Source of the DNA: Candidatus Hydrogenedentota bacterium | GTDB taxonomy: Bacteria; Hydrogenedentota; Hydrogenedentia; Hydrogenedentales; SLHB01 | Reading direction: 5' to 3' | NCBI GenBank assembly: GCA_045863295.1 | Contig: BTWA01000029.1 | Span: 48,835 to 82,266, forward strand | DNA length: 33,432 bases | Shown: in pieces, positions 1 through 12,462 of the stretch | Numbering within the stretch: the stretch's first letter is position 1 | Layout: every line of letters starts with the position of its first letter | Program-made: the position numbers and the translations under genes | The notes under the pieces: generated by a model | Databases searched by the model: none | Told to the model about the DNA's origin: nothing | What the model saw: only the letters and a program-made list of their open reading frames with translations

Positions 1-97
1 TGGGACTCCAGCCAGCCGCGCATCGTCGCGAGGGGCTCCAGCCAGCCGCGCATCGTCGCGAGGGACTCCAGCCAGCCGCGCATCGACGCGAGGGGCT
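1..97 (+). repeat. 30-bp in-frame tandem repeat, 3.2 copies visible (likely continues upstream)
   Basis: WGGGRCTCCAGCCAGCCGCGCATCGWCGCG at 1-30, 31-60 and 61-90, plus a partial copy at 91-97. Confidence 0.95.
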
Positions 98-585
98 ATG
101 TACAACTGTCGATCAAAGGCGCAGTCACTGGCAAGGCTGAATCGACCTGCGCGGTATTGATCGAGGGCAAGGGCGCGAAAATTACGGGCGGCAAAAAAAC
201 GCGCGTGAAAATCACAACACCTAGTGAGTGGTGTCTGTATTACGGCGTCAAGGTCAAAAACGGCATGGCGCTGCTATACAAGGCGCTCGACGACAATTTT
301 ATGTCGCCACACGGCATGAGTTACGCGCCAGGGACAACACCCGTTGCTCCCGATTGGGACGGTGGGAAACGTGAATGTGGCCTGGGCCTCCATTTCTCTC
401 CACGCCCTGCAATGGCCCGCGAGTTTAACGACGCCGCAACCAAGTATTGCGGCTGCTGGGTAAAGCTCACAGACATGGCAATCCATCCGAATGGCGACAG
501 CCCGCAAAAGTGCAAGGCGCGTGCAGTCGCGAAGTCTTGTTTCGAGGTTGACGAAGACGGCGAACCCATGGAGAACAAGTCATGA
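1..585 (+). CDS. 5'-truncated phage protein with 10-aa repeats (xxSSQPRIxA) and a C-terminal 'YKA...CGxGLHF' domain
   Basis: Frame 1 is open from base 1 (WDSSQPRIVARGSSQPRIVARDSSQPRIDARGYVQL...) into the 157..585 ORF. The stop overlaps the next ATG (ATGA 582-585). Confidence 0.8.
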   Translation, partial: WDSSQPRIVARGSSQPRIVARDSSQPRIDARGYVQLSIKGAVTGKAESTCAVLIEGKGAKITGGKKTRVKITTPSEWCLYYGVKVKNGMALLYKALDDNFMSPHGMSYAPGTTPVAPDWDGGKRECGLGLHFSPRPAMAREFNDAATKYCGCWVKLTDMAIHPNGDSPQKCKARAVAKSCFEVDEDGEPMENKS

Positions 586-1529
586 CCAGCGGATGTCTGC
601 AAGTAGCCCAGAACGGAATGCGCGATTGCCAGAGCTTGACCCAGGAAGACTGGCAAGCCCTGCACCGCGAGCGCAACATCATCACTGCAAGCGAAGTCGG
701 GACCATCCTCGGGGTCAACCCGTACAAGTCCCCCTACACACTGTGGGCGGAAAAAACCGGGCGCGTCGAACGGTCCGAGGGCTCGCTGCATACACGCATC
801 GGCAAGGCTCTCGAACACCTGATCGCCGATGAGTATCAGGCTCAGACCATGCGGCCGATCTACGACCCAGGCGATTACGCGGTGTGGCAACACCCCGATC
901 TGGAATGGCTTTTCTGTACCCCGGATCGGTTCGCAATCCAAGCTGACACGCCGGACAGCTACGTCGCCAGAGTGGTCGAATTGAAGTGGGGCGGCGACTA
1001 CACGCGCAAGGCGTGGGACACGGACAACGAAGCGGCGCCACTCGCCTATCAGGTCCAGAACCAAATCCAAATGGCGTGCGTCGGTCTCGACCTGGGCAGC
1101 GTTGCCGGCATCATTGGCGGCACGTTCATCAACACCGACACCCGGTTAAACGCGGCGTTTCTCAAAGCGGCCTTGCGACGGATTGACGAATTCCGCCAGA
1201 TGGTGTTGCGAGACGAAGCCCCGCCAGTCGATGACTCTGAAAACACCTACCGGACCCTGAAAGCCCTACACCCCAAGGATAACGGCAACACGGTCATCCT
1301 CAACACGGAAGATTCGTCTGCGGTTCATCGCTTGAAGTTGGTGAAAGATCATATTTCTTCGCTGGAAAAAGAAGAGCTGGGGTTGAAAAACCTTGTTCTG
1401 GCTGGCATCGGCGACAACACGTTTGCTCAAACCTGCGACGGCGCGTTGAAGCTCAGCTACAAATGGTTCGAGCGAAAGGGGTACGAGGTGAAGCCCACCG
1501 AAGGGCGCACCCTGCGGTTTTGCAAGTAA
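582..1529 (+). CDS. YqaJ-like viral recombinase / lambda-exonuclease family
   Basis: W...R...ITASEVGTILGVNPYKSPYTLWAEKTG, G...E, TPD...VELK and Y..Q.Q.QM motifs. Directly upstream of an annealase. Confidence 0.9.
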   Translation: MTSGCLQVAQNGMRDCQSLTQEDWQALHRERNIITASEVGTILGVNPYKSPYTLWAEKTGRVERSEGSLHTRIGKALEHLIADEYQAQTMRPIYDPGDYAVWQHPDLEWLFCTPDRFAIQADTPDSYVARVVELKWGGDYTRKAWDTDNEAAPLAYQVQNQIQMACVGLDLGSVAGIIGGTFINTDTRLNAAFLKAALRRIDEFRQMVLRDEAPPVDDSENTYRTLKALHPKDNGNTVILNTEDSSAVHRLKLVKDHISSLEKEELGLKNLVLAGIGDNTFAQTCDGALKLSYKWFERKGYEVKPTEGRTLRFCK

Positions 1530-1542
1530 ACCCAATGGCGAG

Positions 1543-1585
1543 CCCTGGTGTGGCCCCGTGCCAGGGAGTCGAGAGTGAACGGGGC
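1543..1585 (+). ncRNA. Pseudoknot-type RNA motif, copy 1
   Basis: P1 CCCTGGT(1543-49)/GCCAGGG(1560-66); loop GTGGCCCCGT; GCCCCGT pairs with ACGGGGC(1579-85). Confidence 0.65.
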
Positions 1586-1625
1586 TGTCTGAAGCAATCA
1601 ACCGAAAGGAAAAGGAGTCAATAGT

Positions 1626-2489
1626 ATGAGTGCTGCAATGCAAGAGACCCAAGCGCCGGCGAATCTGCCGGTAACGACGAATGGCGCGAAGGAACGCAAT
1701 CTCCCCAAGGTCATCGGAGAAAACGGCCTCGTATTCGCCGACATGGAGCAAATGTGGATTTTCGCCACGCGCGTTAAGGCGTCGAACCTGTGCCCGAAAG
1801 ACTGCAAGACAGTTGAGGACGTTTTTGTCAGGCTTCAAATGGGCTTTGAAATCGGCCTTCGCGCGATGCAGTCCCTGAACAACATCGCGACGATCAACGG
1901 GCGGCCTACGTTGTGGGGCGACCTGTCGCTCGCGCTGTGCAAGGCCCGTAAAGAGGCGTTCGAGTACGCGACTGTCGATTACGAGAACGACCCTGGCGAC
2001 GTGTCGAACCTGAAGGATTACACGGACAATTTCGCGGTTGTCGTGCGCGTGAAGCGCAAGGGCGAAGCGGAGCACGTCGAACGCTTCAGCGTGGCCGACG
2101 CCAAGCTCGCGGGTATCTGGGGCGCGAATGTTTGGGCGAAGTATCCGCGCCGCATGATCCGGCATCGCGCCATGACCTACGCGCTTCGCAGTGTCTTCCC
2201 GGACATTCTGGGCGGCATCTATTCCGAGGATGAAGCCCGCGAAATGGTTGAAGTTCAAAATCTTGCAGATCAGACGCCGCCGAAAAACCTCACCGATCTG
2301 ACCAAGACGCTTGGATACGCGCAAGCGCAACAGGCCAAGGAGCCTGTTGAGGCGGAACCCGTTGTAGACCCGGACACCGGCGAGATTCTGAATTCCGATG
2401 ATTCCGTCTATGTGGACCGCACCGCGGAATTCGAGACCGCGCCGGATGAAACGCCCCAAGCATCACCGGAACAAACCGGCATCTGGTGA
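1626..2489 (+). CDS. RecT/Red-beta-like single-strand annealing protein
   Basis: QSLNNIATINGRPTLWGD and W.KYPRRM...RA...ALR..FPD.LGG.Y..DE motifs, acidic C-terminal tail, SD AAGGAG, paired with the YqaJ exonuclease. Confidence 0.85.
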   Translation: MSAAMQETQAPANLPVTTNGAKERNLPKVIGENGLVFADMEQMWIFATRVKASNLCPKDCKTVEDVFVRLQMGFEIGLRAMQSLNNIATINGRPTLWGDLSLALCKARKEAFEYATVDYENDPGDVSNLKDYTDNFAVVVRVKRKGEAEHVERFSVADAKLAGIWGANVWAKYPRRMIRHRAMTYALRSVFPDILGGIYSEDEAREMVEVQNLADQTPPKNLTDLTKTLGYAQAQQAKEPVEAEPVVDPDTGEILNSDDSVYVDRTAEFETAPDETPQASPEQTGIW

Positions 2490-2501
2490 TGATCGACGAA
2501 C

Positions 2502-2547
2502 GGGTGCATGGCCGAATCCCTCGCGCCGCAGCCCAGGCCATGCACCC
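2502..2547 (+). other. Intergenic perfect 12-bp hairpin with 22-nt loop, no U-tract
   Basis: GGGTGCATGGCC(2502-13)/GGCCATGCACCC(2536-47). Confidence 0.7.
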
Positions 2548-2579
2548 ACCCCAAAAAACCTAACGGAAAGAGAGGCAAC

Positions 2580-3206
2580 ATGAAAGTGAAAGAAGAATGG
2601 TGGCAAAAAGGGTCCGCCATCGTATCGAACTTGCCGACAGGCCACGACGACAAAGGCAATCTGGAGTATTTTGGCGGGCATTGCGTTTGCGAATCCGTTC
2701 CGGCGCGTGTCGCGCCGTTGCTGGTCAATGCGCGGCGGTTGTGGTTTGCGTTGGCAGAAATCGTGCTCAGCGAGCCACATGGGCGATTTGCTGAAGCCTA
2801 TCAGGTGCTTTGCGATGCAGACCCGAATCTGTCGCTGCGTAAGGAATTCGGATCGGCAATCGATCCCGTTCAACAAGACGCCGAGCAACAGACCGCCGTA
2901 TCCGATCCCGTCGAACCCATTTGCTCTATTCGTGAATCCGAAATCGACATCGGCGACTACGTCTATGTATTCAAAGAGTCGGGAGGCCCTGTGTGTTGCA
3001 AGTCGGTCGAATGGGTCCGATACAAAGTACTCAAGAAGCGTGTCGAGTACGTTGATGGGAGTGCCGGAAAGTACGAGTTTCTTCTTGATAACAATTACGG
3101 CAATCATTGGCGCGGCCTTGAAGGCGTTTACACGCCTGCCATGGCCAAGCGTCTTGTTGCCCAGTGGGCGGACGAATTCTTCACGTCCGAAGCGGAGGGC
3201 AAATAG
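2580..3206 (+). CDS. Hypothetical protein
   Basis: ATG at 2580 follows GAGAGG. The longer 2508 start lies inside the hairpin. Confidence 0.65.
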   Translation: MKVKEEWWQKGSAIVSNLPTGHDDKGNLEYFGGHCVCESVPARVAPLLVNARRLWFALAEIVLSEPHGRFAEAYQVLCDADPNLSLRKEFGSAIDPVQQDAEQQTAVSDPVEPICSIRESEIDIGDYVYVFKESGGPVCCKSVEWVRYKVLKKRVEYVDGSAGKYEFLLDNNYGNHWRGLEGVYTPAMAKRLVAQWADEFFTSEAEGK

Positions 3207-3208
3207 CC

Positions 3209-5158
3209 ATGTTCCTTCGCAAAGTCCGCATCCAAAATTTCTGCGGAGTGGAGCACCTTGAAGTTTCGTTCCGCTCGCAATCCTCCATCGTGATGGGGTT
3301 CAACCGTCAGGGCAAAACAACCCTGATGAACGCCATTCGCTATGCCTTTTTCGGGGAGTGCTACGACGAGGAAGGCGTCAAGCAAAAGCAAGACGATCTG
3401 ATCGGGCGATGGGACAAAACCGCGCTTATCTACATTGAGTTTGAACGATCCGGGGAACCATACCGCTACACGGTGAGCCTGGGCAATGGTGGTGCTCAAT
3501 GTGATTTACATGGCCGAAACAACTCGCACAAGTCTTTCACCCCTACAAACGCCAGCCGGTTCTTCTCGGACCTGTTTGAATTCGACATGGCCCATGCCCG
3601 GATCGCCGCGTTCTCGAATGAAATCGTGAAAGGCGACATTACGGAATTCGTTTCCCGGTTTGTGAGCATTGTCACACCGGAGGAAGTCAAGCAGTTTGCG
3701 GGGCCGAACTGGGCCAAATTGAACGACTGGTGCAAAGAGAATGCCGTAACTATTACCGATGTCGCGCACATCGGGGCGAAGGCCCGTGAGTTTCGTACCG
3801 TGTCGAATCGTGAGGCCGGCAAAGCCAAGGCGCGACTGGAAGAAATCGGCACCTGCATTGCGCCTACGTCGAAGGACGGCACGCGCATTTTGACGGCGGA
3901 TGATCGCCCGGCCATTGAGACGGCGGTCAAGAATCTGGAAGCGCAACTGGAAGAATTGAACCGGGAGTTTGGCGCAGCCACGGCCGTCAAGATCGATACG
4001 AAGAAGGTCACTGCTGCAAAGGCCGCGCTGGCCGGGGCCGAATCCGAGCGCGATTCGGTGAAGAAAGTCCTTGACGAATACGACGAGGGCATTACCTCTG
4101 TCGAGTCCGAAATCAAGGTCATGACCAGTAACCAAAGCCGCGCACATGGTGAAATGTCCGGCTGGCAAGCCAAGCGCGACGTGATCGAATCGGAAATCGA
4201 CCGCATGAAGGGGCTTTCCCATTGCCCCACATGTACAGCCGAATGGACGCTTGATCGGCTTGAGGCCGCAACCAAAACCCTGCGAATCGAGGCCGACAAG
4301 GCCGCGCAGGAAATCGCGGGCTACCAGTCTACCTTGGCGGACATCGGCAAGGAGCTCGCCAAGAAACACAAGCGCCTAGACCAACTTCGCACGCTCCGGG
4401 CCGACCACGAGCCAAAGTACAAAGCGCTTGTGGACAAGGTCTCCGAATTGAAGGCCCAGGCGCGTTTGATGGGTATTCCGGTAGGTGGCGCCGATCCCGT
4501 CCTGGCGCAAGCCGTCACGCGCAAGCCGGATGAAATCGAAGCGCTGATCGAGCAGACCAAGGCCACGGTCCAAGAGGGCCGGGACAAACTCGCGGCGCTG
4601 TCGGCCTACCTCGACTACCAGCGGGTCATTACGGAAGTGGACCGTCACACGGCGGACTCTAAGTTTCTGGATTGGCTGGTGAAGTCCTTCGATAACGGTG
4701 AATTTCAGTCCAAGCAATCCGGCAGCGGCCTCGATGATGTCGTGAAACGATGCAACTCGATCCTGTCTGTCTTTGACCTTGAACTGAAAGTGGCATCCTC
4801 GAACAAGAAAAGCGTTATCCACTTCCTGGACCGTCTTCAGGACAATCCGCCGTGGTTGCCCATCACGAAGGCGAGCCGGTCCGCTCGCATGAAGATTCAA
4901 TTCGCATTGTCGCTCGGCTTTGACGCGGGCTGGCTGCGCTTGATGGATGACTCGGAATCCATCGAGGCGAAGTACAAGCAATCCCTCCTGGACCTCATGA
5001 AATCGCTCTGTGGCAAACAGGGCAGCACCATCGTTTCCGGTGTGGTCACAAACGGACTCGTGCCCGATTTGGAAAAACTCAATAAGGCATTTAATCCGGT
5101 AGGGGTCTACTGGGTTCAGGCAGTGAATTCGGAGTCGGCACAGGCGGCGGTCGCCTGA
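3209..5158 (+). CDS. Rad50/SbcC-like SMC-type AAA ATPase with coiled coil and zinc hook
   Basis: MFLRKVRIQNF start, Walker A GFNRQGKTT, central CPTC hook within the coiled coil, Walker B LRLMDDSE, SD GGAGG. Confidence 0.85.
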   Translation: MFLRKVRIQNFCGVEHLEVSFRSQSSIVMGFNRQGKTTLMNAIRYAFFGECYDEEGVKQKQDDLIGRWDKTALIYIEFERSGEPYRYTVSLGNGGAQCDLHGRNNSHKSFTPTNASRFFSDLFEFDMAHARIAAFSNEIVKGDITEFVSRFVSIVTPEEVKQFAGPNWAKLNDWCKENAVTITDVAHIGAKAREFRTVSNREAGKAKARLEEIGTCIAPTSKDGTRILTADDRPAIETAVKNLEAQLEELNREFGAATAVKIDTKKVTAAKAALAGAESERDSVKKVLDEYDEGITSVESEIKVMTSNQSRAHGEMSGWQAKRDVIESEIDRMKGLSHCPTCTAEWTLDRLEAATKTLRIEADKAAQEIAGYQSTLADIGKELAKKHKRLDQLRTLRADHEPKYKALVDKVSELKAQARLMGIPVGGADPVLAQAVTRKPDEIEALIEQTKATVQEGRDKLAALSAYLDYQRVITEVDRHTADSKFLDWLVKSFDNGEFQSKQSGSGLDDVVKRCNSILSVFDLELKVASSNKKSVIHFLDRLQDNPPWLPITKASRSARMKIQFALSLGFDAGWLRLMDDSESIEAKYKQSLLDLMKSLCGKQGSTIVSGVVTNGLVPDLEKLNKAFNPVGVYWVQAVNSESAQAAVA

Positions 5159-5197
5159 GCAAAACATTAGCGGTTATCACCAACGGAGAGTGGTCAA

Positions 5198-6058
5198 ATG
5201 GATGAATTGACGGTCCCGTCCTTCCTGAAGGACGCAATCGAGCACCTGATCGAAGACACGCGCAAGCACGCGGTAGTCAACAAGAATGTTGAGGTCATCG
5301 ATCTGCACAAGGTGGCAAGTGGAGTTGAGCGGATTATCCGGGTTCCCGGTGAACCGTCGAAACGCGAGTTCTTCGCGAACGATTGCCGAGGGCGGAATCA
5401 CACGTTCACGACATTGGAAGGGTTTTGCGACTTCTTGAACGGTCCGCACTGCGTCGATAACCATGACGGCGAAGGTGTTGGCGTGGTCTTTGTCCAGCGC
5501 GAAGACGCCAAGCTCGCCCATGCCGATCTGGATTACCTGGGCAACGGCAAGCCGGAAAGCGCCGTCCTGTCGCTGCAACGCTCCACCGAATACAAGGCGC
5601 TGGAAAAACTCGCCACGGGCATTGGGCAAGCCTCCCTGTGGCGGTTGCTGTTCACCGACCTTGAAGGTTGCATCGAGCCGGACAATCTCATCACCTACAT
5701 TCTGGACATGGATGTGAAGCTGGAAGACGGCAAGCAAGTCAAAATCTCGCCGCTCGGGCCATCCGCTGTTCGCAGTTCATCCGCTGTCTCCATCAAGTAT
5801 CCGAATTCCGAGGGCGGCATGGAAACCCGTGAAATGCCCGTCGAATGGAAATGGTCTGGCCGCATCTGGGAGGGGTTCGATTACTCGTGCGAAGTCGATC
5901 TGCGCATGGAGTTATCGGCATCCCGCGAAGGCGACGTGATCTTCAAGTTCCACCCGAAACGGCTTGCCGAGCATAACAACAACGCTCGTCTGGCGTTGGT
6001 CGCGGCCCTGCGCCAGCGCGTTACCGGCCCGTTCAACGTATACGAAGGGCTGTACTAG
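5198..6058 (+). CDS. Phage hypothetical protein, possibly DUF2303/YfdQ-like
   Basis: SD GGAG. Size, 'HTFTTLEGFCDFL' and C-terminal 'VYEG' resemble that family. Adjacent to a small partner gene. Confidence 0.55.
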   Translation: MDELTVPSFLKDAIEHLIEDTRKHAVVNKNVEVIDLHKVASGVERIIRVPGEPSKREFFANDCRGRNHTFTTLEGFCDFLNGPHCVDNHDGEGVGVVFVQREDAKLAHADLDYLGNGKPESAVLSLQRSTEYKALEKLATGIGQASLWRLLFTDLEGCIEPDNLITYILDMDVKLEDGKQVKISPLGPSAVRSSSAVSIKYPNSEGGMETREMPVEWKWSGRIWEGFDYSCEVDLRMELSASREGDVIFKFHPKRLAEHNNNARLALVAALRQRVTGPFNVYEGLY

Positions 6059-6079
6059 GCATTCTTCCGAACAGGACGA

Positions 6080-6117
6080 ATGGGCCGTGGCCCCGAGGCA
6101 CGTAAAAGTATCGGGGC
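6080..6117 (+). ncRNA. Pseudoknot-type RNA motif, copy 2
   Basis: P1 ATGGGCC(6080-86)/GGCACGT(6097-6103, one mismatch); loop GTGGCCCCGA; GCCCCGA pairs with TCGGGGC(6111-17). Confidence 0.6.
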
Positions 6118-6150
6118 GAACGGAAAAACCAATAACGGAGACCAGAAGCA

Positions 6151-6591
6151 ATGAATACAGGCTTAACGATGGAGTGCATTGAGGGTCTTCAAGAAGCCAT
6201 CGATGCAAACCTTGAGCGAGTCGCGCAGGACGCGGTTGGCCAGCGTTCTTGGCTGGAAAAGCCTCGCGTTGTAGAGGTCAAGATTCTCGTTTTGCCAAGC
6301 GAGCGAATCATCCAGGGCGAAATCGTGAAACAAGTTGGCGTCACGTTTTCGGTGGGATCGAAAATCCCAGGCGACAGCAGCGGCGGACAAATCGGCCTCG
6401 TTATGCCGGGGGGCCAGATCGTCTTGCGGCCCTCGCGCATCAAGGGCGATCCGAATCAGTTGGATGTCGAGGAATACGAGCAAGCCGTACAGGCCGTGGC
6501 GGACGTTCAGACCGAATCCATTGCGGAGCCCGACGAGGGTTCGCCGGGGAACGTTTCGCGATTCGGAAAAGCGAAAACCGGCCAGGCGTAG
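6151..6591 (+). CDS. Phage hypothetical protein (small partner of 5198..6058)
   Basis: SD GGAG. The 'KPRVVEVKILVLP...VGSKIP...PNQLD' pattern is typical of a widespread small prophage protein. Confidence 0.7.
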   Translation: MNTGLTMECIEGLQEAIDANLERVAQDAVGQRSWLEKPRVVEVKILVLPSERIIQGEIVKQVGVTFSVGSKIPGDSSGGQIGLVMPGGQIVLRPSRIKGDPNQLDVEEYEQAVQAVADVQTESIAEPDEGSPGNVSRFGKAKTGQA

Positions 6592-6623
6592 CGTGGGCCG
6601 TGGGCACTCCTTAAAGAGCAAGG

Positions 6624-6665
6624 CCACGTTGTGGCCCCGTGGCGTGGGGAAGGAATTGACGGGGC
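6624..6665 (+). ncRNA. Pseudoknot-type RNA motif, copy 3
   Basis: P1 CCACGTT(6624-30)/GGCGTGG(6641-47); loop GTGGCCCCGT; pairs with ACGGGGC(6659-65). Confidence 0.65.
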
Positions 6666-6693
6666 AAATCTAAAAGAAAAGGTGGCTTGAAAA

Positions 6694-7104
6694 ATGCTTC
6701 ATTCAATCACATGCAAGCAATGCAATGGAGTTGGCTCGTTTCCACCCTTCACGAGACAGGTGTGTAGTTTTTGCAGTGGCAAGCGCGGCTTCGACGTGTT
6801 GTCGCTACGGCGAAAAGAATTAGAGCTATTTGTTCATTGCAGGCGAGTGATCGAAATCGCTGTGTGTTCTGAGGATGGGCTTGATGAGTACGACAGAGAC
6901 ATTACCCTGAATTGGATCGCGTATCTCGAATTGTCATGCCCTTTTGCCATGTCAACTCTATGGTTTGACGTTAAGAAAGCGATCGAGTTGGCGATTCCAG
7001 AAAATGACAATGAGCCGGAAGGTGAAGAATACCTAAAACTTGCCAAGTCAATAGACGCCTATCTGGTCGACTGCGCATGTGCGGGATGGAAAGGACCGTT
7101 TTAA
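6694..7104 (+). CDS. Hypothetical protein with N-terminal CxxCxGxG zinc finger
   Basis: CKQCNGVG...CSFCSGKR. The TAATG overlap couples it to the next gene. Confidence 0.7.
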   Translation: MLHSITCKQCNGVGSFPPFTRQVCSFCSGKRGFDVLSLRRKELELFVHCRRVIEIAVCSEDGLDEYDRDITLNWIAYLELSCPFAMSTLWFDVKKAIELAIPENDNEPEGEEYLKLAKSIDAYLVDCACAGWKGPF

Positions 7105-7643
7105 TGGCCGGCGCGAACGACTACGGAACCCCGCTGGACATCTTCCAGGCGTGCGAGCGCCGATGGGGCAAGTTCTCCCTGGACGTCTGTGCGCACCGAC
7201 TCAACGCCAAATGCAAAGCGTGGTACGGCGAACCCGGCCACCCGCTTGCAGAAGGTTGCACGGCCCTGGACGGGCTTGCGCAGCCTTGGTATTCGCGCAA
7301 CTGGCTCAACCCGCCGTATTCAGCGAAAGGCCCGAACGGCAAAATGATCGGGGTTGCAGAGGGCTGGATCAGGAAGGCAATTCAAGAAGCGAAGAATTGG
7401 CATACGACGGTCGCTCTGGTCAAAAACGATCCGTCCACCGAATGGTTCAAGCTCGGATCAGATTGCGCCGCTGAAGTGTGGTTCCCGCGCGGATCGCGAA
7501 TCCGATTTTTCGAAACGATTCAACTGGACGACGGAAGTTGGGATCAGCAGCCGTCAAAAACCCCGCCATTTACGACCTGCATCATGGTGTTTCGCCGACT
7601 GCATCCAGGCGAACGTCAGCATGTGGGTTGGTGGGATGTTTGA
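7104..7643 (+). CDS. Phage DNA N6-adenine methyltransferase (phage Dam family)
   Basis: DYGTP..IF, F.LDVCA...NAKC, DGL.Q.W, WLNPPYS catalytic motif, ST.WF and RI.F. Confidence 0.9.
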   Translation: MAGANDYGTPLDIFQACERRWGKFSLDVCAHRLNAKCKAWYGEPGHPLAEGCTALDGLAQPWYSRNWLNPPYSAKGPNGKMIGVAEGWIRKAIQEAKNWHTTVALVKNDPSTEWFKLGSDCAAEVWFPRGSRIRFFETIQLDDGSWDQQPSKTPPFTTCIMVFRRLHPGERQHVGWWDV

Positions 7644-7655
7644 AAGAGGCAACCC

Positions 7656-8252
7656 ATGATGACACAGCCAACACTTATACCAGACATGGATCGCGGCGCG
7701 ATTCTATCGCCCTGCGGGGTCTACCGCTACGCGCTCTGGCGCATTTGGGATAAGACCCTCCCGAAGGTCACATGGATCATGCTGAACCCGTCCACTGCGG
7801 ACGCAGAGCACGACGATCCGACCATTCGGAAGTGCATCGGGTTCAGCAAGCAATTCGGCTATGGCGGGTTCACGGTGCTGAATCTGTTTAGTCGGCGAGC
7901 AACCGATCCCGATGATCTCGTTAAATGGACCCGTGTCAGCGACGATCCCGAAGATGACGCTATTCCGCCACCGTGCCCATTGGGTTCAGATTGGGCGGTA
8001 TATTTCAATGGTCTCAATTCGGTAAGGGAAGACGTCATTTGCGCGTGGGGCACATGGATCGAGGCGTTTGCCTACCGCTACAAGACTCGTCAATCACCGC
8101 CGTTTTGTAACCGAGATAAGCATGTTCTGGCATTGATCCCTAACTGCAAAAAGTATTGTCTCGGCATAACGAAGGGCGGTTTTCCAAGGCATCCGCTCTA
8201 TGTTGCATACAAGAAGCCGCTCGTGCCGTTCAAACCGGAGATGGTGGCGTGA
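7656..8252 (+). CDS. DUF1643 family protein
   Basis: S.CG.YRY.L.R.W, IMLNPSTAD...DDPTIRKC, NLF..RAT.P, AWG and PRHPLY motifs. Confidence 0.9.
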   Translation: MMTQPTLIPDMDRGAILSPCGVYRYALWRIWDKTLPKVTWIMLNPSTADAEHDDPTIRKCIGFSKQFGYGGFTVLNLFSRRATDPDDLVKWTRVSDDPEDDAIPPPCPLGSDWAVYFNGLNSVREDVICAWGTWIEAFAYRYKTRQSPPFCNRDKHVLALIPNCKKYCLGITKGGFPRHPLYVAYKKPLVPFKPEMVA

Positions 8253-9013
8253 ACGCGCACGAGATCGTAAAGTTGCTCGCACTAAAGCACAACAAAGATG
8301 TGTTTGTCCCCGAGTGCAAGGACGGACCTACGCATTACGCAAACCACTTGCGTATGGACGCATGGGCAATGAAGCGGTCATGGGCTAATCCGAAATTGAC
8401 GGGCTACGAGATCAAGGTGTCGCGCGCGGACTTTTTGAAGGACGACAAGTGGCCCGGCTACTTGTGTAATTGCAACGAATTCTATTTTGTTGCCCCGCCA
8501 AAGATCATAGACCCGCTTGAACTACCAAAAGAGGCCGGTTTACTGGTAGTCACATCGACAGGCAACGGGTTTACGACCAAGAAGCGTGCACCTTTTCGTC
8601 AAATTGAGTCGCCAAACATGATCTACGAATATGTGTTGATGTGCCGCGCCAAAATATCTCGCGTCTACGAATCCGACGAGCAGACAATCGACTACTGGCG
8701 CAATTGGCTTGCGGAGAAAAAAGAGTCGAGGCAAATTGGCTACAAGGTTTCGAAGCGCATACGTGAATATGTACATGAGGTTGAGGCGGAAAATGAGCGA
8801 TTGAAGCGAGACGCCGAGCGGGTCGAGGAAACAAGACAGATGTTGGTGCAATTAGGGATACGCCCCGATGACTACCGAAACATAAAAGAGCGCAGGGCGA
8901 AAGAATTGGCTGCGGGTATCCCCGAAGATTTTGTCGAGGATGTCAGTACGGCCATACGCAAACTCCAGTCGATAATCTCGACGGTCGATAAAATCCAGAA
9001 GGCGGCGACATGA
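8249..9013 (+). CDS. MmcB-like PD-(D/E)XK nuclease with C-terminal coiled coil
   Basis: GTG start overlaps the previous stop (GTGA). RMDAW...GYEIKVSRADFLKDDKW..Y...CNEFYFVAP and ELP..AGL motifs. Confidence 0.8.
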   Translation: MNAHEIVKLLALKHNKDVFVPECKDGPTHYANHLRMDAWAMKRSWANPKLTGYEIKVSRADFLKDDKWPGYLCNCNEFYFVAPPKIIDPLELPKEAGLLVVTSTGNGFTTKKRAPFRQIESPNMIYEYVLMCRAKISRVYESDEQTIDYWRNWLAEKKESRQIGYKVSKRIREYVHEVEAENERLKRDAERVEETRQMLVQLGIRPDDYRNIKERRAKELAAGIPEDFVEDVSTAIRKLQSIISTVDKIQKAAT

Positions 9014-9330
9014 ACGCTCAACTCGAATTACCGCTGGCGCTTCCTGCGTTGCCCGTCAAGGCGACCGTGGAAGAACGCGCCGCACGATTCGACGCGGAAC
9101 ACCCGGAGGTCATGGAAGCCATTGCGGAGGCCGCACGGCGGCAAATCGGCATCGGCGCCAAGCGCCTTTCCATGCTGCACCTGTATGCAGAGGCGCGGGC
9201 CGCGCTGAAAATCCACATGAACAATTCGTTCATGCCCTGGTACACGCGGCGGTTTATTGAGGAATACCCCGGCTTTCGCGGGTACTTCGAGCTCAGGAAG
9301 ACGAACGAAGAAAGGAACGGCAAGTCATGA
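9010..9330 (+). CDS. Conserved phage hypothetical protein
   Basis: ATGA overlaps on both sides. 'F...HPEV...NNSF.PWY.R......P.....FELR' pattern. Confidence 0.7.
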   Translation: MNAQLELPLALPALPVKATVEERAARFDAEHPEVMEAIAEAARRQIGIGAKRLSMLHLYAEARAALKIHMNNSFMPWYTRRFIEEYPGFRGYFELRKTNEERNGKS

Positions 9331-9551
9331 CAACTGCGGAAGCCTGTATGGCCCTGTTGATCGTTGTGCTCGTGCTCGTTCAAGCGATCGTGCACTACCG
9401 CTTCGTTTGGCTTCGTGCCCAATACGATGCCATGGCAAAGGAATACAAGGCGTTTCTGGAGCAATCCATCGCGGAAAGGCGGCGGGAGTTGCATCGGAAA
9501 GCCATCGTGCGGCATCTGGCCGAAAGAGCGAAGGGAGGGATTGAGAATTGA
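9327..9551 (+). CDS. Small membrane-anchored hypothetical protein
   Basis: Hydrophobic MALLIVVLVLVQAIV followed by a charged helix; coupled start. Confidence 0.65.
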   Translation: MTTAEACMALLIVVLVLVQAIVHYRFVWLRAQYDAMAKEYKAFLEQSIAERRRELHRKAIVRHLAERAKGGIEN

Positions 9552-9664
9552 GCCAAATCGTCATCATAGACATCGGGTCACAAATAGGGACCTGTGTTTT
9601 GTATCTGTGCTTCACCGCAATACTTTGCGCGTGAATCGTTGCCTACGCGTTAAGAAAGGATTGA
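9548..9664 (+). pseudogene. Small hydrophobic ORF interrupted by TGA at 9632-9634
   Basis: GGAGG plus TTG at 9548 gives LSQIVIIDIGSQIGTCVLYLCFTAILCA*IVAYALRKD*, which fills the gap before 9668. Confidence 0.4.
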
Positions 9665-9667
9665 GTC

Positions 9668-10060
9668 ATGGGAGAACTCTATGCTTGCCCGTTTTGCCGC
9701 AGCGAAGTATTGACTTGTCTCAAAGCAGTTAATGGCGGCTGCTACGTCGGATGTGTTCATTGCGGCGCACGCACTAAGATATTTGGCGCAATAGAAGACG
9801 CCAAGGCCGCATGGAATCGGTGCGGGTCACACATAAATCGTATCGCCTGTAGCGTTGGCCACATGGAAGAAAGAGACAGCCTCTCCCGCGCCGAATACAA
9901 CCTGTTGCACGCCGCCGTCTGTGCGCGGGATTTCCTGCACGCAATCATCCATAGGAGTGAACAGGTCGCGGAATCGGCAGACGAAGTATATGAGCGTTTG
10001 CGCAAGGCCATCGAGGCTGTTGCGCCGAATGAGTCACTCGATAAGGAATCGCGTCCATGA
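9668..10060 (+). CDS. Lar-family (restriction alleviation) zinc-ribbon domain protein
   Basis: L..CPFC...YVGC..CGA......A..AWNR motif; SD AAGGA. Confidence 0.75.
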   Translation: MGELYACPFCRSEVLTCLKAVNGGCYVGCVHCGARTKIFGAIEDAKAAWNRCGSHINRIACSVGHMEERDSLSRAEYNLLHAAVCARDFLHAIIHRSEQVAESADEVYERLRKAIEAVAPNESLDKESRP

Positions 10061-10488
10061 GCGACCCAAAATGCCCGGTGTGTAACGGGAGTGGGAAAAA
10101 GCCTTTTCCCTTATGCCCGCAATGCGATCAACCGGTCAAGAGGGTTTCAAGGTCTCCGAATAGTTATATGACCGAAGAGCAATTTGACGCTGTAAAGGCA
10201 GGGGATTGGTTTTGTGATAATTGCTCAGGTGATCGCGGCCAAACAGGTTATGCCTATTTCTGGCAATCTGAAATTGATTTTACTTGCGACTGCGAATGGA
10301 AGCCAAAGATGGGCGAGCGCGTAATCTACTTTGACGCTGTCTGTGGTTTTGATGCGTCTGTGTTGGTGCAAGAACATCATTCCAAAGCCAACCATACTGC
10401 CGTTTTTTCGCTTTCTGAGCAAGGGATTAAGGCCGCATTGTCTGAAGTAGAGAAGGTGTTACGGGCGCAACTTGAACGGTGGGCCTAG
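10057..10488 (+). CDS. Cys-rich zinc-binding hypothetical protein
   Basis: CPVCNGSG, CPQC, CDNC and CDC; ATGA overlap. Confidence 0.7.
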   Translation: MSDPKCPVCNGSGKKPFPLCPQCDQPVKRVSRSPNSYMTEEQFDAVKAGDWFCDNCSGDRGQTGYAYFWQSEIDFTCDCEWKPKMGERVIYFDAVCGFDASVLVQEHHSKANHTAVFSLSEQGIKAALSEVEKVLRAQLERWA

Positions 10489-10491
10489 ACC

Positions 10492-10770
10492 ATGAACGAC
10501 CCGAACAACAGCCGCCAGTTTCAAGACGGCGACTACGTTATGCACCAACACGGTTTTGGTGATTTAGGTGTACTTGCAGTTGTGCAGGGCTACGAGGAAA
10601 GGGAACTTATCGGGGGATGGAAACTGAAATTTTACCATCTACAGATTGTAGACGGTGGAAAGGTAAAGGCATTTAAGCAGGAGGTTGTGTCCGTTGATGA
10701 GTATATACGGAGCCACCAGCAATGGCTGGACACTCTCAAGGCAAAAGTAGCTGAGAGGGGTTGCCAATGA
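10492..10770 (+). CDS. Hypothetical protein
   Basis: Tightly packed ORF in the same direction as its neighbours. Confidence 0.6.
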   Translation: MNDPNNSRQFQDGDYVMHQHGFGDLGVLAVVQGYEERELIGGWKLKFYHLQIVDGGKVKAFKQEVVSVDEYIRSHQQWLDTLKAKVAERGCQ

Positions 10771-10973
10771 TTCTGGCATCTATCATCGCAATTGCCGCCT
10801 TCGTCTTCGTTTTCTGGTGGGGGTTTAACACCGGCCACAAGTACGGCTACTCGCAAGGGTACAAAGTCGGCTGCATTAACTCCATCCACATAGAGCGGCA
10901 TCTCAACAAAATGGATGAAGCAATCCAGAAGGTTACGGCCATCGAGGAAAAACTGAAACTGAAGCAACAGTAA
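10767..10973 (+). CDS. Small single-pass membrane protein
   Basis: MILASIIAIAAFVFVFWWG followed by G-x-x-x-G-Y repeats; ATGA overlap. Confidence 0.65.
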   Translation: MILASIIAIAAFVFVFWWGFNTGHKYGYSQGYKVGCINSIHIERHLNKMDEAIQKVTAIEEKLKLKQQ

Positions 10974-10983
10974 GGGATGTGTC

Positions 10984-11511
10984 TTGGACCCGCACACCTA
11001 CATCATGCGCAAAGGAAAGTACGCTGGCCGCCAGTTGGTAGCGGTACCCTCGCACTATCTGAGACGCATTGTTCAGCAAAAAGTAGGGGAGTGGAAGATC
11101 GCCGAAATCGAACTGAGGCGGCGCGGCACCGACGTGCCTACGGTCGATGTCACAGCCCATGCGATTGACCGTGCGTCATTCCGGCTGTTGGACCATTGGA
11201 GAGGCACCCGCGTGGAAAACGAGGGCCTTTACACCTGGCTTGCGCGTCTCTGCGATGCGGCCCTGCGCTCACGAAAGCTCGCTGTAATCTCGGGCGACGA
11301 CACGGAAATCCGCTTTTGCGGGATCAAGTTCATTTTTGCCGGCCGGACAAAAAAGAAACCGGTATTGAAGACGCTGACGCCTCTTGACGACGGGATACTG
11401 ACCAAGAGGCAAGCCATTGAAGGGATTTCGCTCGCCCTCGGGCGTGCACGGAAAAAGGGAAGGGACCATGGGAAATTATCCGGGGAAGAGAGCCACGAAA
11501 CGGGCACTTGA
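10984..11511 (+). CDS. Hypothetical protein with DUF3820-like N-terminus
   Basis: M..GKY.G..L..VP..YL motif, then a VT.HAIDR segment. Confidence 0.6.
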   Translation: MDPHTYIMRKGKYAGRQLVAVPSHYLRRIVQQKVGEWKIAEIELRRRGTDVPTVDVTAHAIDRASFRLLDHWRGTRVENEGLYTWLARLCDAALRSRKLAVISGDDTEIRFCGIKFIFAGRTKKKPVLKTLTPLDDGILTKRQAIEGISLALGRARKKGRDHGKLSGEESHETGT

Positions 11512-11529
11512 TCAAGGGGGTGCCCCCAA

Positions 11530-12462
11530 GTGAAACGCGGTACTTTCAACCATCCCAAGACGGGCCATTTGGCGCGTCTTCTGGGAGTCTGTCGCGCGGC
11601 CGCCGGAGGCTACCTCGAAGCGATGTGGCACTGGACCGCGGAGTTCACTCCGGCCGGCGATATTGGCCGGTACAGGGACAGCGAAATCGCGGAAGGCGCC
11701 TTCTGGCCACCTGACCAGGCGAGCGAAATTATTGCGGCGATGATCGAATCCAGATGGCTGGACGCGTGCGAAACACATCGGATCATCGTGCACGACTGGC
11801 CTGAACACTGTGAAGACACAGTGCATTCGAGGCTTACGCGGTCAGGACAAACTTTTGCAAACGGCGAACAACCCAAGAAAACGAAGCTTTCACAACGTGA
11901 ACGGCATCAAGTAGATAGGTGTCGGCGAAAAACGGCGGCCGTCGTGCGCACGACGGCGGAAAACGGCGAAAAAAAGCCGCCCGCCGTAGCCGTAGCCGTA
12001 GCCGTAGCCGGGCCATTGCCCCCGCCAATGCCGGAGCCTTTGCCGGAGCCGGAAGCCGACGCGCGCGCGAACGCCGCAAACGTGTCCGCCTTCCCGGCAC
12101 CCGGCCGTTCACACAATCGAGTCGAGAATTCACCGGACGGTGCCATCGGCAACGCGGTTTCTGCCGTCGTGGGTCAGGTCTCCGAGTCGGACGCGAAAGC
12201 GTTTCGGGTCCCTGGGGATGACCTGCTGGCCCGATGCCTTGCGCTGGAACAGCGGGTCGGAAACAGCGAACGCACCTTGTGGCAGAGGCGACTTCTCGAA
12301 ATCCGCAAAGCCCGGATGGCGAACCAATTCGAGCGCTTGCTCGAAGAGGCAGAGAACCGGCTCGCAAACGAACGCATCGTGCACAGCAAGGGCTACACCG
12401 ACAGACTGAAATCGCCAGCGGCATGGCTCAATGCCGAAAGCAGGAAATTGCTCAATGCGTGA
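11530..12462 (+). CDS. Putative phage replication initiator / replisome organiser
   Basis: HPK...LAR.LG...G.LE..WHW...HDW.EH N-terminal domain, low-complexity AV/PE linker, C-terminal helical domain (KSPAAWL); upstream of RusA. Confidence 0.6.
   Translation: MKRGTFNHPKTGHLARLLGVCRAAAGGYLEAMWHWTAEFTPAGDIGRYRDSEIAEGAFWPPDQASEIIAAMIESRWLDACETHRIIVHDWPEHCEDTVHSRLTRSGQTFANGEQPKKTKLSQRERHQVDRCRRKTAAVVRTTAENGEKKPPAVAVAVAVAGPLPPPMPEPLPEPEADARANAANVSAFPAPGRSHNRVENSPDGAIGNAVSAVVGQVSESDAKAFRVPGDDLLARCLALEQRVGNSERTLWQRRLLEIRKARMANQFERLLEEAENRLANERIVHSKGYTDRLKSPAAWLNAESRKLLNA
11938..11957. repeat. Perfect 20-bp palindrome inside the putative initiator gene
   Basis: GCCGTCGTGCGCACGACGGC equals its own reverse complement. 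Confidence 0.9.
11983..12009 (+). repeat. Hexamer microsatellite (GCCGTA)x4.5 encoding AVAVAVAVA
   Basis: Direct reading of the sequence. Confidence 0.9.

Follow-up and report, generated by a model that had tools for sequence, protein, structure and literature searches.

What is the element that stands three times between the genes of one prophage, each time ahead of a different gene, and what could it do for them? The DNA considered here, called the window in what follows, is a stretch of 33,432 nucleotides (nt) from a Candidatus Hydrogenedentota bacterium (contig BTWA01000029.1, positions 48,835 to 82,266 of the forward strand), and it is the right-hand part of a prophage in a host genome of 6.3 Mb with 56.6% G+C. 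Three of its spacers carry a motif in which a hairpin, P1, presents a loop, and the 3' part of that loop is complementary to a strand lying beyond a linker, with which it would form a second helix, P2. An earlier note on this DNA had claimed that the three spacers share one architecture, and both the coordinates and the letters were confirmed on the + strand.

Judging by the sequences collected here, the motif is an uncatalogued and widespread RNA family of many unrelated phages. It had been described as a three-copy motif of this phage, a description that has to be given up, since the family is found elsewhere and is usually single-copy within 12 kb. The reading that we propose as a whole is that of a cis-acting leader pseudoknot of this uncatalogued phage family, which would affect the translation initiation or the mRNA fate of the gene downstream, and we assign to it a probability of about 0.5.

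The three copies and their family

The copies and their parts are listed below, P1a and P1b being the two strands of P1, L1 the first three bases of the loop, and P2b the 3' strand of P2. The scores are those of a covariance model built from the family.

Copy 1, 1543-1585, + strand, whole motif, 44.4 bits: P1a 1543-1549 CCCTGGT; loop 1550-1559 GTGGCCCCGT; P1b 1560-1566 GCCAGGG; linker 1567-1578; P2b 1579-1585 ACGGGGC; L1 (GUG) 1550-1552; P2 formed by 1553-1559 with 1579-1585.
Copy 2, 6080-6117, + strand, whole motif, 35.7 bits: P1a 6080-6086 ATGGGCC; loop 6087-6096 GTGGCCCCGA; P1b 6097-6103 GGCACGT; linker 6104-6110; P2b 6111-6117 TCGGGGC; P2 formed by 6090-6096 with 6111-6117, pair 7 in the A-U orientation.
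Copy 3, 6624-6665, + strand, whole motif, 43.9 bits: P1a 6624-6630 CCACGTT; loop 6631-6640 GTGGCCCCGT; P1b 6641-6647 GGCGTGG; linker 6648-6658; P2b 6659-6665 ACGGGGC; P2 formed by 6634-6640 with 6659-6665.

The change from T to A in the loop of copy 2 is compensated by a change from A to T in its tail, as had been noted. P1 had been given as 7 base pairs (bp) in each copy, which is right for copies 1 and 3, the latter including two U.G pairs, but copy 2 forms only six of the seven pairs and has a G.A mismatch at the centre. Computed as isolated helices, P1 of the three copies comes to between -8.1 and -11.5 kcal/mol and P2 to about -12.3 kcal/mol.

The pattern GGCCCCG-N15-35-CGGGGC occurs three times in the window against 0.14 expected, a number that none of 100 shuffles reached. 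The loop word GTGGCCCCG is present 69 times in the whole genome, with CGGGGC at most 51 nt downstream in four cases, and three of those four are the window copies. The covariance model found these three sites alone, both in the window and in the 6.3-Mb genome, and a relaxed regular expression gave 20 candidates in the whole genome, four of them with at least five of the seven P1 pairs, including the three window copies. No further or diverged copies were found in the window, in the genome or in a sister phage, G001, beyond those described here. Three copies in 5 kb are unusual, because around 80 loci of IMG/VR the covariance model detected no second copy within ±6 kb. Just past the stop codon upstream of copy 3, at window 6592-6606, it was also possible to see the stretch GTGGGCCGTGGGCAC, whose likeness to the 5' part of copy 2 (ATGGGCCGTGGCCCC) may be a coincidence or mark the remnant of an earlier motif copy.

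A scan of IMG/VR with the pattern GTGGCCCCGW..WCGGGGC gave at least 120 unique matches and, among the matches listed, 33 have at least six of the seven P1 pairs, compared with one to three in each of six shifted-register controls on the same sequences. These P1-positive matches share the architecture of the window copies, with entirely different P1 sequences. Scans of IMG/VR, scans for variants, a gene-anchored sample and prophage-like stretches of metagenome-assembled genomes (MAGs) were then combined into an alignment of 97 distinct members (A3), from which four palindromic Actinobacteria matches (L364 and L416, both strands), six doubtful metagenome matches and the matches of a scan of L1 position 2 were kept out.

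The consensus of the family reads P1a-U, GU(G), GCNCCGW, G-P1b, a linker of 6-19 nt, W'CGGN'GC and A. P1 is a variable hairpin of 5-7 bp closed by U.G, and the motif takes up about 40-55 nt in all. L1 measures 3 nt and L2 0 nt in all members, whereas the linker, L3, is unconserved in sequence and in length (6-21 nt, a lower bound partly set by the search patterns). The purine-rich linker of the earlier note is a property of this window and not of the family, in which the linker composition is A 0.27, C 0.27, G 0.25 and T 0.20. Its last base is A in 69 of 107 candidates, and the base after P2b is A in 66 of the same 107 and is followed by a G-poor stretch at positions +3 to +6; no other conservation was seen within 30 nt upstream or 45 nt downstream of the motif.

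The loop, which had been called invariant, does vary across the family, at L1 position 3 and at P2 pair 3. The former is mostly G, and a dedicated scan with 33 unique matches had U, A or C there in 15 P1-positive ones. For L1 position 2 no clear variants appeared in a metagenome scan of at least 119 unique matches, seven of which, among those listed, had at least six of the seven P1 pairs and five passed the filter, near background. Variants of P2 pair 4 were sought in IMG/VR and none was found: the 80 unique matches had background-like P1 scores, and of the five that passed the P1 filter four had non-complementary W/W'. Pairs 1, 2, 5 and 6 of P2 were held fixed in all search patterns.

Within the host phylum, 3 of 135 genomes carry a match to the motif. 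In bacterial DNA sampled at one genome per species most pattern matches were background in high-G+C Actinobacteria, and about 10 credible MAG copies came from at least eight lineage labels (Longimicrobiales, Deltaproteobacteria, Phycisphaeraceae, Acetobacteraceae, Hydrogenedentales, Bdellovibrionales, Nitrospirales and Verrucomicrobia). This sporadic host distribution fits mobile DNA, as expected. One IMG/VR contig (L283/L284) has two near-identical copies about 1.9 kb apart, of the variant GGCACCGU / ACGGUGC with a 5-nt linker, each immediately ahead of an open reading frame (ORF) and preceded, some 50-90 nt upstream, by a tRNA-like stretch. The tRNA-like stretch of L284 gives a partial match of 32.8 bits to the Rfam tRNA model, the T-arm-like sequence of L283 was recognised by visual inspection, and neither locus contains a tRNA gene according to ARAGORN.

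Both helices change in a compensatory way. Of all cells in the alignment of 97 members, 92.9% are paired; sliding the 3' partners by 1-3 columns lowers this to 30.6-44.5%. Every one of the seven P1 pairs has exchanges on each strand, 88-97 of the 97 members form the inner five, and the helix is closed by U.G in 88 members, by C-G in 8 and by G.U in 1. Two of the seven P2 pairs change on both sides as well: pair 3 can be C-G, A-U, U-A or G-C, and pair 7 A-U or U-A. As the members had been picked by their P1 pairing, more weight falls on the evidence that lies outside that choice. The positions W and W', which the patterns left free as A or T, are complementary in every P1-positive member of the alignment (A-U 55, U-A 39, with 3 misaligned). 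A scan that barred C-G at P2 pair 3 returned 85 unique matches, 18 of them with good P1; here 17 of the 18 replace the pair by another Watson-Crick pair (A-U 11, U-A 4, G-C 2) and W/W' is complementary in all 18, while among the 67 remaining matches pair 3 is Watson-Crick in 25 and W/W' complementary in 34. These exchanges argue that P2 is a helix and not merely a conserved word.

For the gene-anchored sample, chosen without reference to the motif, the anchor was a phage class II ribonucleotide reductase, and 66 IMG/VR loci were taken. The covariance model found the motif in 25 of them, all close relatives with 72-100% protein identity, among which P1 sequences were exchanged on several occasions, and in four loci the two variable P2 pairs are both switched with compensation. 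Distant relatives of the reductase (50-62% identity) had neither the motif nor a generic pseudoknot of the same geometry. The best cultured relative, in Roseobacter podophages, has 58% identity and falls in the range where the IMG/VR relatives are without the motif.

The cells of P1 hold 111 G.U against 15 A.C, and therefore the fold belongs to the sense strand; the preference for the + strand RNA that had been read from the three copies holds for the family. Considering that P1 and P2 share no bases, that L1 is always 3 nt and that there is no junction base, the motif is most simply read as a classical H-type pseudoknot, rather than as a pair of competing hairpins. Compensatory changes in both helices were the topological test for such a pseudoknot; they are present in other phages, and back the two helices proposed in the earlier note. 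We regard it as highly probable that the motif is an H-type pseudoknot of the sense strand with both helices under selection.

Position of the motif and candidate roles

The motif lies between co-directional ORFs and is oriented as the genes are, and in 21 of 38 loci an ORF of at least 80 amino acids (aa) on the same strand ends at most 50 nt upstream. A start led by a Shine-Dalgarno (SD) sequence was called for 37 of 72 members, and 27 of the 37 have it 12-40 nt past P2b, most often at about 20; in marine phages rich in AT, 1-3 nt separate the SD from the motif. In the window the starts at 1626, 6151 and 6694 were measured at 40, 33 and 28 nt after P2b, which agrees with the 28-40 nt given before. 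The proteins encoded downstream are mutually unrelated by BLAST (RecT, a family A DNA polymerase, MazG, a subtilase, an SU10-type adaptor and many unknowns). No shared partner protein emerged when 39 loci were compared together with flanks of up to ±6 kb; the largest cluster comprised 4 loci.

Since the motif is of the sense strand, stands at gene starts, is independent of the identity of the gene and of any shared protein, and keeps a near-identical core across hosts, we propose a cis-acting leader for the downstream gene. In a polycistronic early mRNA, the P1 hairpin would present its 10-nt loop, whose first three bases (GUG) would cross the groove while the last seven (GCNCCGW) would pair with the downstream W'CGGN'GC to form P2, stacked straight on P1 with no junction base between them. 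The fold would fill nearly the whole spacer and end a short G-poor stretch before the SD of the next gene, and it would act in cis, without a phage-specific protein, as a leader module for that gene. Most likely it would set the recruitment of the 30S subunit at a start site whose translation is uncoupled from that of the gene upstream; our second choice is that it would fix the processing or stability of the downstream mRNA segment.

Several results weigh against this proposal. In 10 of the 37 members with a called start, the SD-led start is 52-124 nt away, and none was called for 35 of the 72, many of which have too little flank. Because the members were chosen on P1 pairing and fixed words, a few false ones are likely in the sets, and the P1 statistics and the invariance of P2 pairs 1, 2, 5 and 6 are partly built in. 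The z-scores of the nested minimum free energy on the + strand, obtained with a tool that cannot fold pseudoknots, are unremarkable for copies 1 to 3 (-0.39, -2.50 and -0.07). A switch that masks the SD had to be rejected: across the 97 members the pairing of the loop with the 45 nt downstream averaged -7.43 kcal/mol against -7.83 for shuffled sequence (mean z +0.18). Of the roles listed in the earlier note (exoribonuclease block, processing site, antitermination, translational control, two-state switch), such pairing of the loop with the ribosome-binding region is one version, and it does no better than shuffled sequence. Finally, a passive structure would not explain the conserved sequence of P2, in which pair 4 never varied. 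The strong constraint within P2 and L1 points instead to specific recognition (by the ribosome, an RNase or a ligand), to catalysis or to a demanding tertiary fold.

Coding was discarded as a source of the conservation. Hidden coding of GUN-GCN-CCG (Val-Ala-Pro), or a leader peptide, was considered, and the count of members with an open frame across the motif is 72, 57 and 73 of the 97 for the three frames; the length of the motif is not 3-periodic either (35, 29 and 33 members per residue class).

The sister phage G001, whose RecT is 78% identical to that of the window, retains copy 1 upstream of recT and is without copies 2 and 3. The two phages have 93% identity over window 6492-6604, through the end of the gene upstream of copy 3, and then follow unrelated sequence and an unrelated gene: homology to G001 stops at 6604, about 20 nt upstream of copy 3, and the next G001 gene has a motif-free spacer. 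The junction between window 6592-6604 and G001 (L257 1501-1613) is a sharp mosaic one, and the window region 5174-6492 is also replaced in G001. In this one comparison copy 3 seems to go with the gene downstream and not with the gene upstream.

The motif may also be looked at as an RNA processing or stability element in its own right, comparable to the RNase III sites between the early genes of T7; it would guide a host endonuclease to the G-poor stretch on its 3' side, or block exonucleases, and so divide the early transcript into segments with protected ends. Its intergenic, spacer-filling and sense-strand position would suit such a role, as would the A after P2b (66 of 107) with the G-poor positions +3 to +6, and no phage protein would be needed. 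However, it is not obvious why a barrier or a cleavage guide should need 12 near-invariant bases in phages of different host phyla, and in the single informative comparison, that with G001, the motif tracks the downstream gene. We consider this explanation possible but unlikely.

The near-identical core in phages that share no detectable proteins, and whose hosts are of different phyla, suggests action via something universal, such as the ribosome, a core RNase or a common ligand, or a chemistry of its own. The leader could even be a protein-independent and universally portable expression module, exchanged as a cassette with its gene: either an element resembling an internal ribosome entry site, which would dock on a conserved 30S platform in any phylum, or a minimal aptamer class for a ubiquitous signal. 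This version is a speculative one and we think it decidedly doubtful.

A riboswitch aptamer would bind a small molecule or an ion that stabilises the pseudoknot and tunes the translation of the next gene, as guanidine-III, preQ1-I and SAM-II do. The motif belongs to the same size class and has the same H-type topology, its conserved bases are those of L1, P2 and the two ends of P2b, with P1 free to vary, the P2 sequence resembles that of a genuine guanidine-III aptamer in the host genome, and the motif stands directly ahead of ribosome-binding sites. Against this, the downstream genes have no common pathway, the SD is outside the fold and no alternative pairing with it was detected, there are up to three copies per operon, and L3, which in the known classes lines the pocket or the groove of P1, is unconserved in sequence and length. 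A ligand-binding role is therefore improbable in our judgement.

We are equally reluctant to see in the motif the operator of an RNA-binding protein (S1, another ribosomal protein or an unrecognised phage protein) that would control the downstream gene, or a nut/put-like antitermination site. The invariant helix sequence and loop bases do fit sequence-specific recognition, and phages offer precedents in the leader pseudoknot of T4 gene 32 and in lambda boxB, but no protein family is common to the carriers within ±6 kb (maximum 4 of 39 loci), and the motif precedes many different genes, usually with one copy per 12 kb, and is not at promoter-proximal, nut-like positions.

The two remaining explanations are very improbable. 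A new small self-cleaving ribozyme with a P1/P2 pseudoknot core would, like pistol and twister, be small, phage-associated, intergenic and protein-free and combine conserved unpaired bases with a pseudoknot, but the Rfam ribozyme models gave no match at thresholds as loose as E 10, conservation ends at P2b+1, so that the further helices of pistol are absent, and five of the seven P2 pairs are invariant, unlike typical ribozyme helices (four of them fixed by the search words, while pair 4 was scanned and never varied). A signal at the DNA level, be it a single-stranded hairpin for replication or recombination or a linker for module exchange in which RNA plays no part, would be in keeping with the mosaic junction about 20 nt from copy 3 and with the place of the motif at cassette boundaries, but not with an orientation that always follows the genes, with the strand-specific tolerance of G.U (111 against 15 A.C), with compensatory changes that keep two interleaved helices, unneeded for recognition of double-stranded DNA, or with shared words of 10 and 7 nt, a length insufficient for homologous exchange.

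Should the fold be confirmed, the motif would represent a new and very small RNA family, of about 45 nt. Any of the universal modes of action named above, or a chemistry of its own, would make it useful to synthetic biology as a portable part for expressing genes in non-model bacteria, and it would supply a marker for phage gene cassettes in metagenomes. Even as a passive spacer structure it would be a clean, uncatalogued family worth an Rfam entry.

The prophage around the copies

All plausible genes of the window are on the + strand, and they include a RecE-like exonuclease, RecT, an SbcC-like protein, several unknowns, a methyltransferase, RusA, terminase, portal, protease and capsid. Those next to the copies are the following.

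582-1529, + strand: RecE-like exonuclease (PHROG 434, E 9e-51), upstream of copy 1, its stop codon 13 nt before P1.
1626-2489, + strand: RecT-like annealing protein (PHROG 561, E 5e-27), downstream of copy 1, its start 40 nt after P2b.
5198-6058, + strand: gene of 286 aa upstream of copy 2, no family match.
6151-6591, + strand: gene of 146 aa between copies 2 and 3, no family match, its start 33 nt after copy 2.
6694-7104, + strand: gene of 136 aa downstream of copy 3, no Pfam or PHROG match, its start 28 nt after copy 3.

Around the copies most genes touch or overlap their neighbours, and the three spacers of about 92-102 nt are precisely those that bear the motif. Neither a sigma-70-like promoter nor a site resembling an intrinsic terminator was found at any of the three copies; the earlier note had seen no U-tracts after them. 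No relatives of the 146-aa protein were found in IMG/VR. The 136-aa protein has a CxxC...CxxC pattern at its N-terminus, which is zinc-ribbon-like and makes it a candidate for binding nucleic acids.

About 2.8 kb to the left of the window a CII-like regulator (Phage_CP76) opens the rightward string of genes, facing a leftward block, and for this reason "early operon", the term used in the earlier note, is a fair description; the window copies are about 4-9 kb into it. The leftward block (L544 8660-12094, approximately 42660-46093 of the contig) consists of five leftward ORFs without family match, opposite the rightward string, and looks like the left part of the prophage; further left there are host-like sugar-metabolism genes. 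Downstream of the copies, at 10489-10983, the tightly packed genes are interrupted just ahead of a replication-initiator-like gene: some 495 nt lack any + strand ORF of 100 aa or more. This gap could be an origin or a regulatory region, or could contain a small gene. A megablast search of window 1-12000 against cultured phages gave no match.

Comparison with known RNAs

Rfam 15 (4227 models) returned no family match for the motif, either at gathering score on the window or at E up to 10 on the spacers and nine other members, and the lack of a named family stated in the earlier note was borne out. The only matches on the spacers were at chance level (E 0.75-8.5) and to unrelated families. Membership in the pistol, twister, hammerhead, preQ1, SAM-II and c4 RNA classes was rejected, none of their covariance models giving a match. 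A catalogue of 2023 lists 10,006 unnamed viral candidate structured RNAs (csRNAs), covarying motifs from intergenic regions of IMG/VR that lie at most 25 nt from start codons (PMC10690425). The motif may already be an unnamed entry of this catalogue; the readable supplements contain neither the core word nor six carrier contig ids, and the catalogue alignments were not compared. The literature, searched by core 9-10-mers and keywords, gave no description of the motif, and the Minerva preprint, in its accessible part, was unrelated to it.

In preQ1-I (RF00522) and SAM-II (RF00521) a hairpin loop pairs with a 3' tail beside the ribosome-binding site. Their topology is that of the motif, but their tail or P2 overlaps the SD and the strands that cross are conserved, whereas in the motif the SD is 4-15 nt beyond the fold and L3 is unconserved. 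The 5' domain of the pistol ribozyme (RF02679), common in phage DNA, is also built on a P1 hairpin whose loop forms a pseudoknot of about 6-7 bp with a strand past a linker. Unlike pistol, the motif has no P2/P3 and no conserved linker bases, and only one A is conserved 3' of the pseudoknot strand. The gene 32 operator of T4 and RB69 is an H-type pseudoknot at the 5' side of the leader, followed by unstructured RNA up to the start codon; it is bound to one gene and to its own product, gp32, whereas the motif precedes unrelated genes and has no common partner protein. According to the accessible text of PMC10690425, the gp32 pseudoknot has no Rfam model.

Of the catalogued RNAs, the guanidine-III riboswitch (ykkC-III, RF01763) comes closest to the motif; it too is a compact H-type pseudoknot in an mRNA leader. 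The host genome has a genuine one, at G000:C1:52199-52262 (L799 1501-1564), with 58.3 bits for a gathering score of 36. In both RNAs a 3' tail pairs with the 3' half of a hairpin loop to give a 7-bp, G/C-rich P2, and the P2 of guanidine-III, GcGcCGU / ACGgCgC then a, is close to the GCNCCGW / W'CGGN'GC then A of the motif. The remaining parts differ: L1 has 7 nt (ACGAGgg) in guanidine-III and 3 nt (GUG) in the motif, P1 is a conserved 4-bp CCGG/CCGG in the former and a variable 5-7 bp in the latter, the junction between P2a and P1b has two bases (AC) against none, L3 is conserved (..GACAAG) against a free linker, and position 3 of P2 is a conserved G in guanidine-III and variable in the motif. 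Membership was rejected, as the RF01763 model (36 bits) scores no copy of the motif even at E up to 10 and the consensus of L1, P1 and L3 is lacking. The gene context is not that of the riboswitch either: guanidine-III riboswitches usually sit with genes for guanidine detoxification or export, and the genes downstream of the motif are those of RecT, DNA polymerase A, MazG, a subtilase and unknown phage proteins. The likeness to guanidine-III is one of architecture only.

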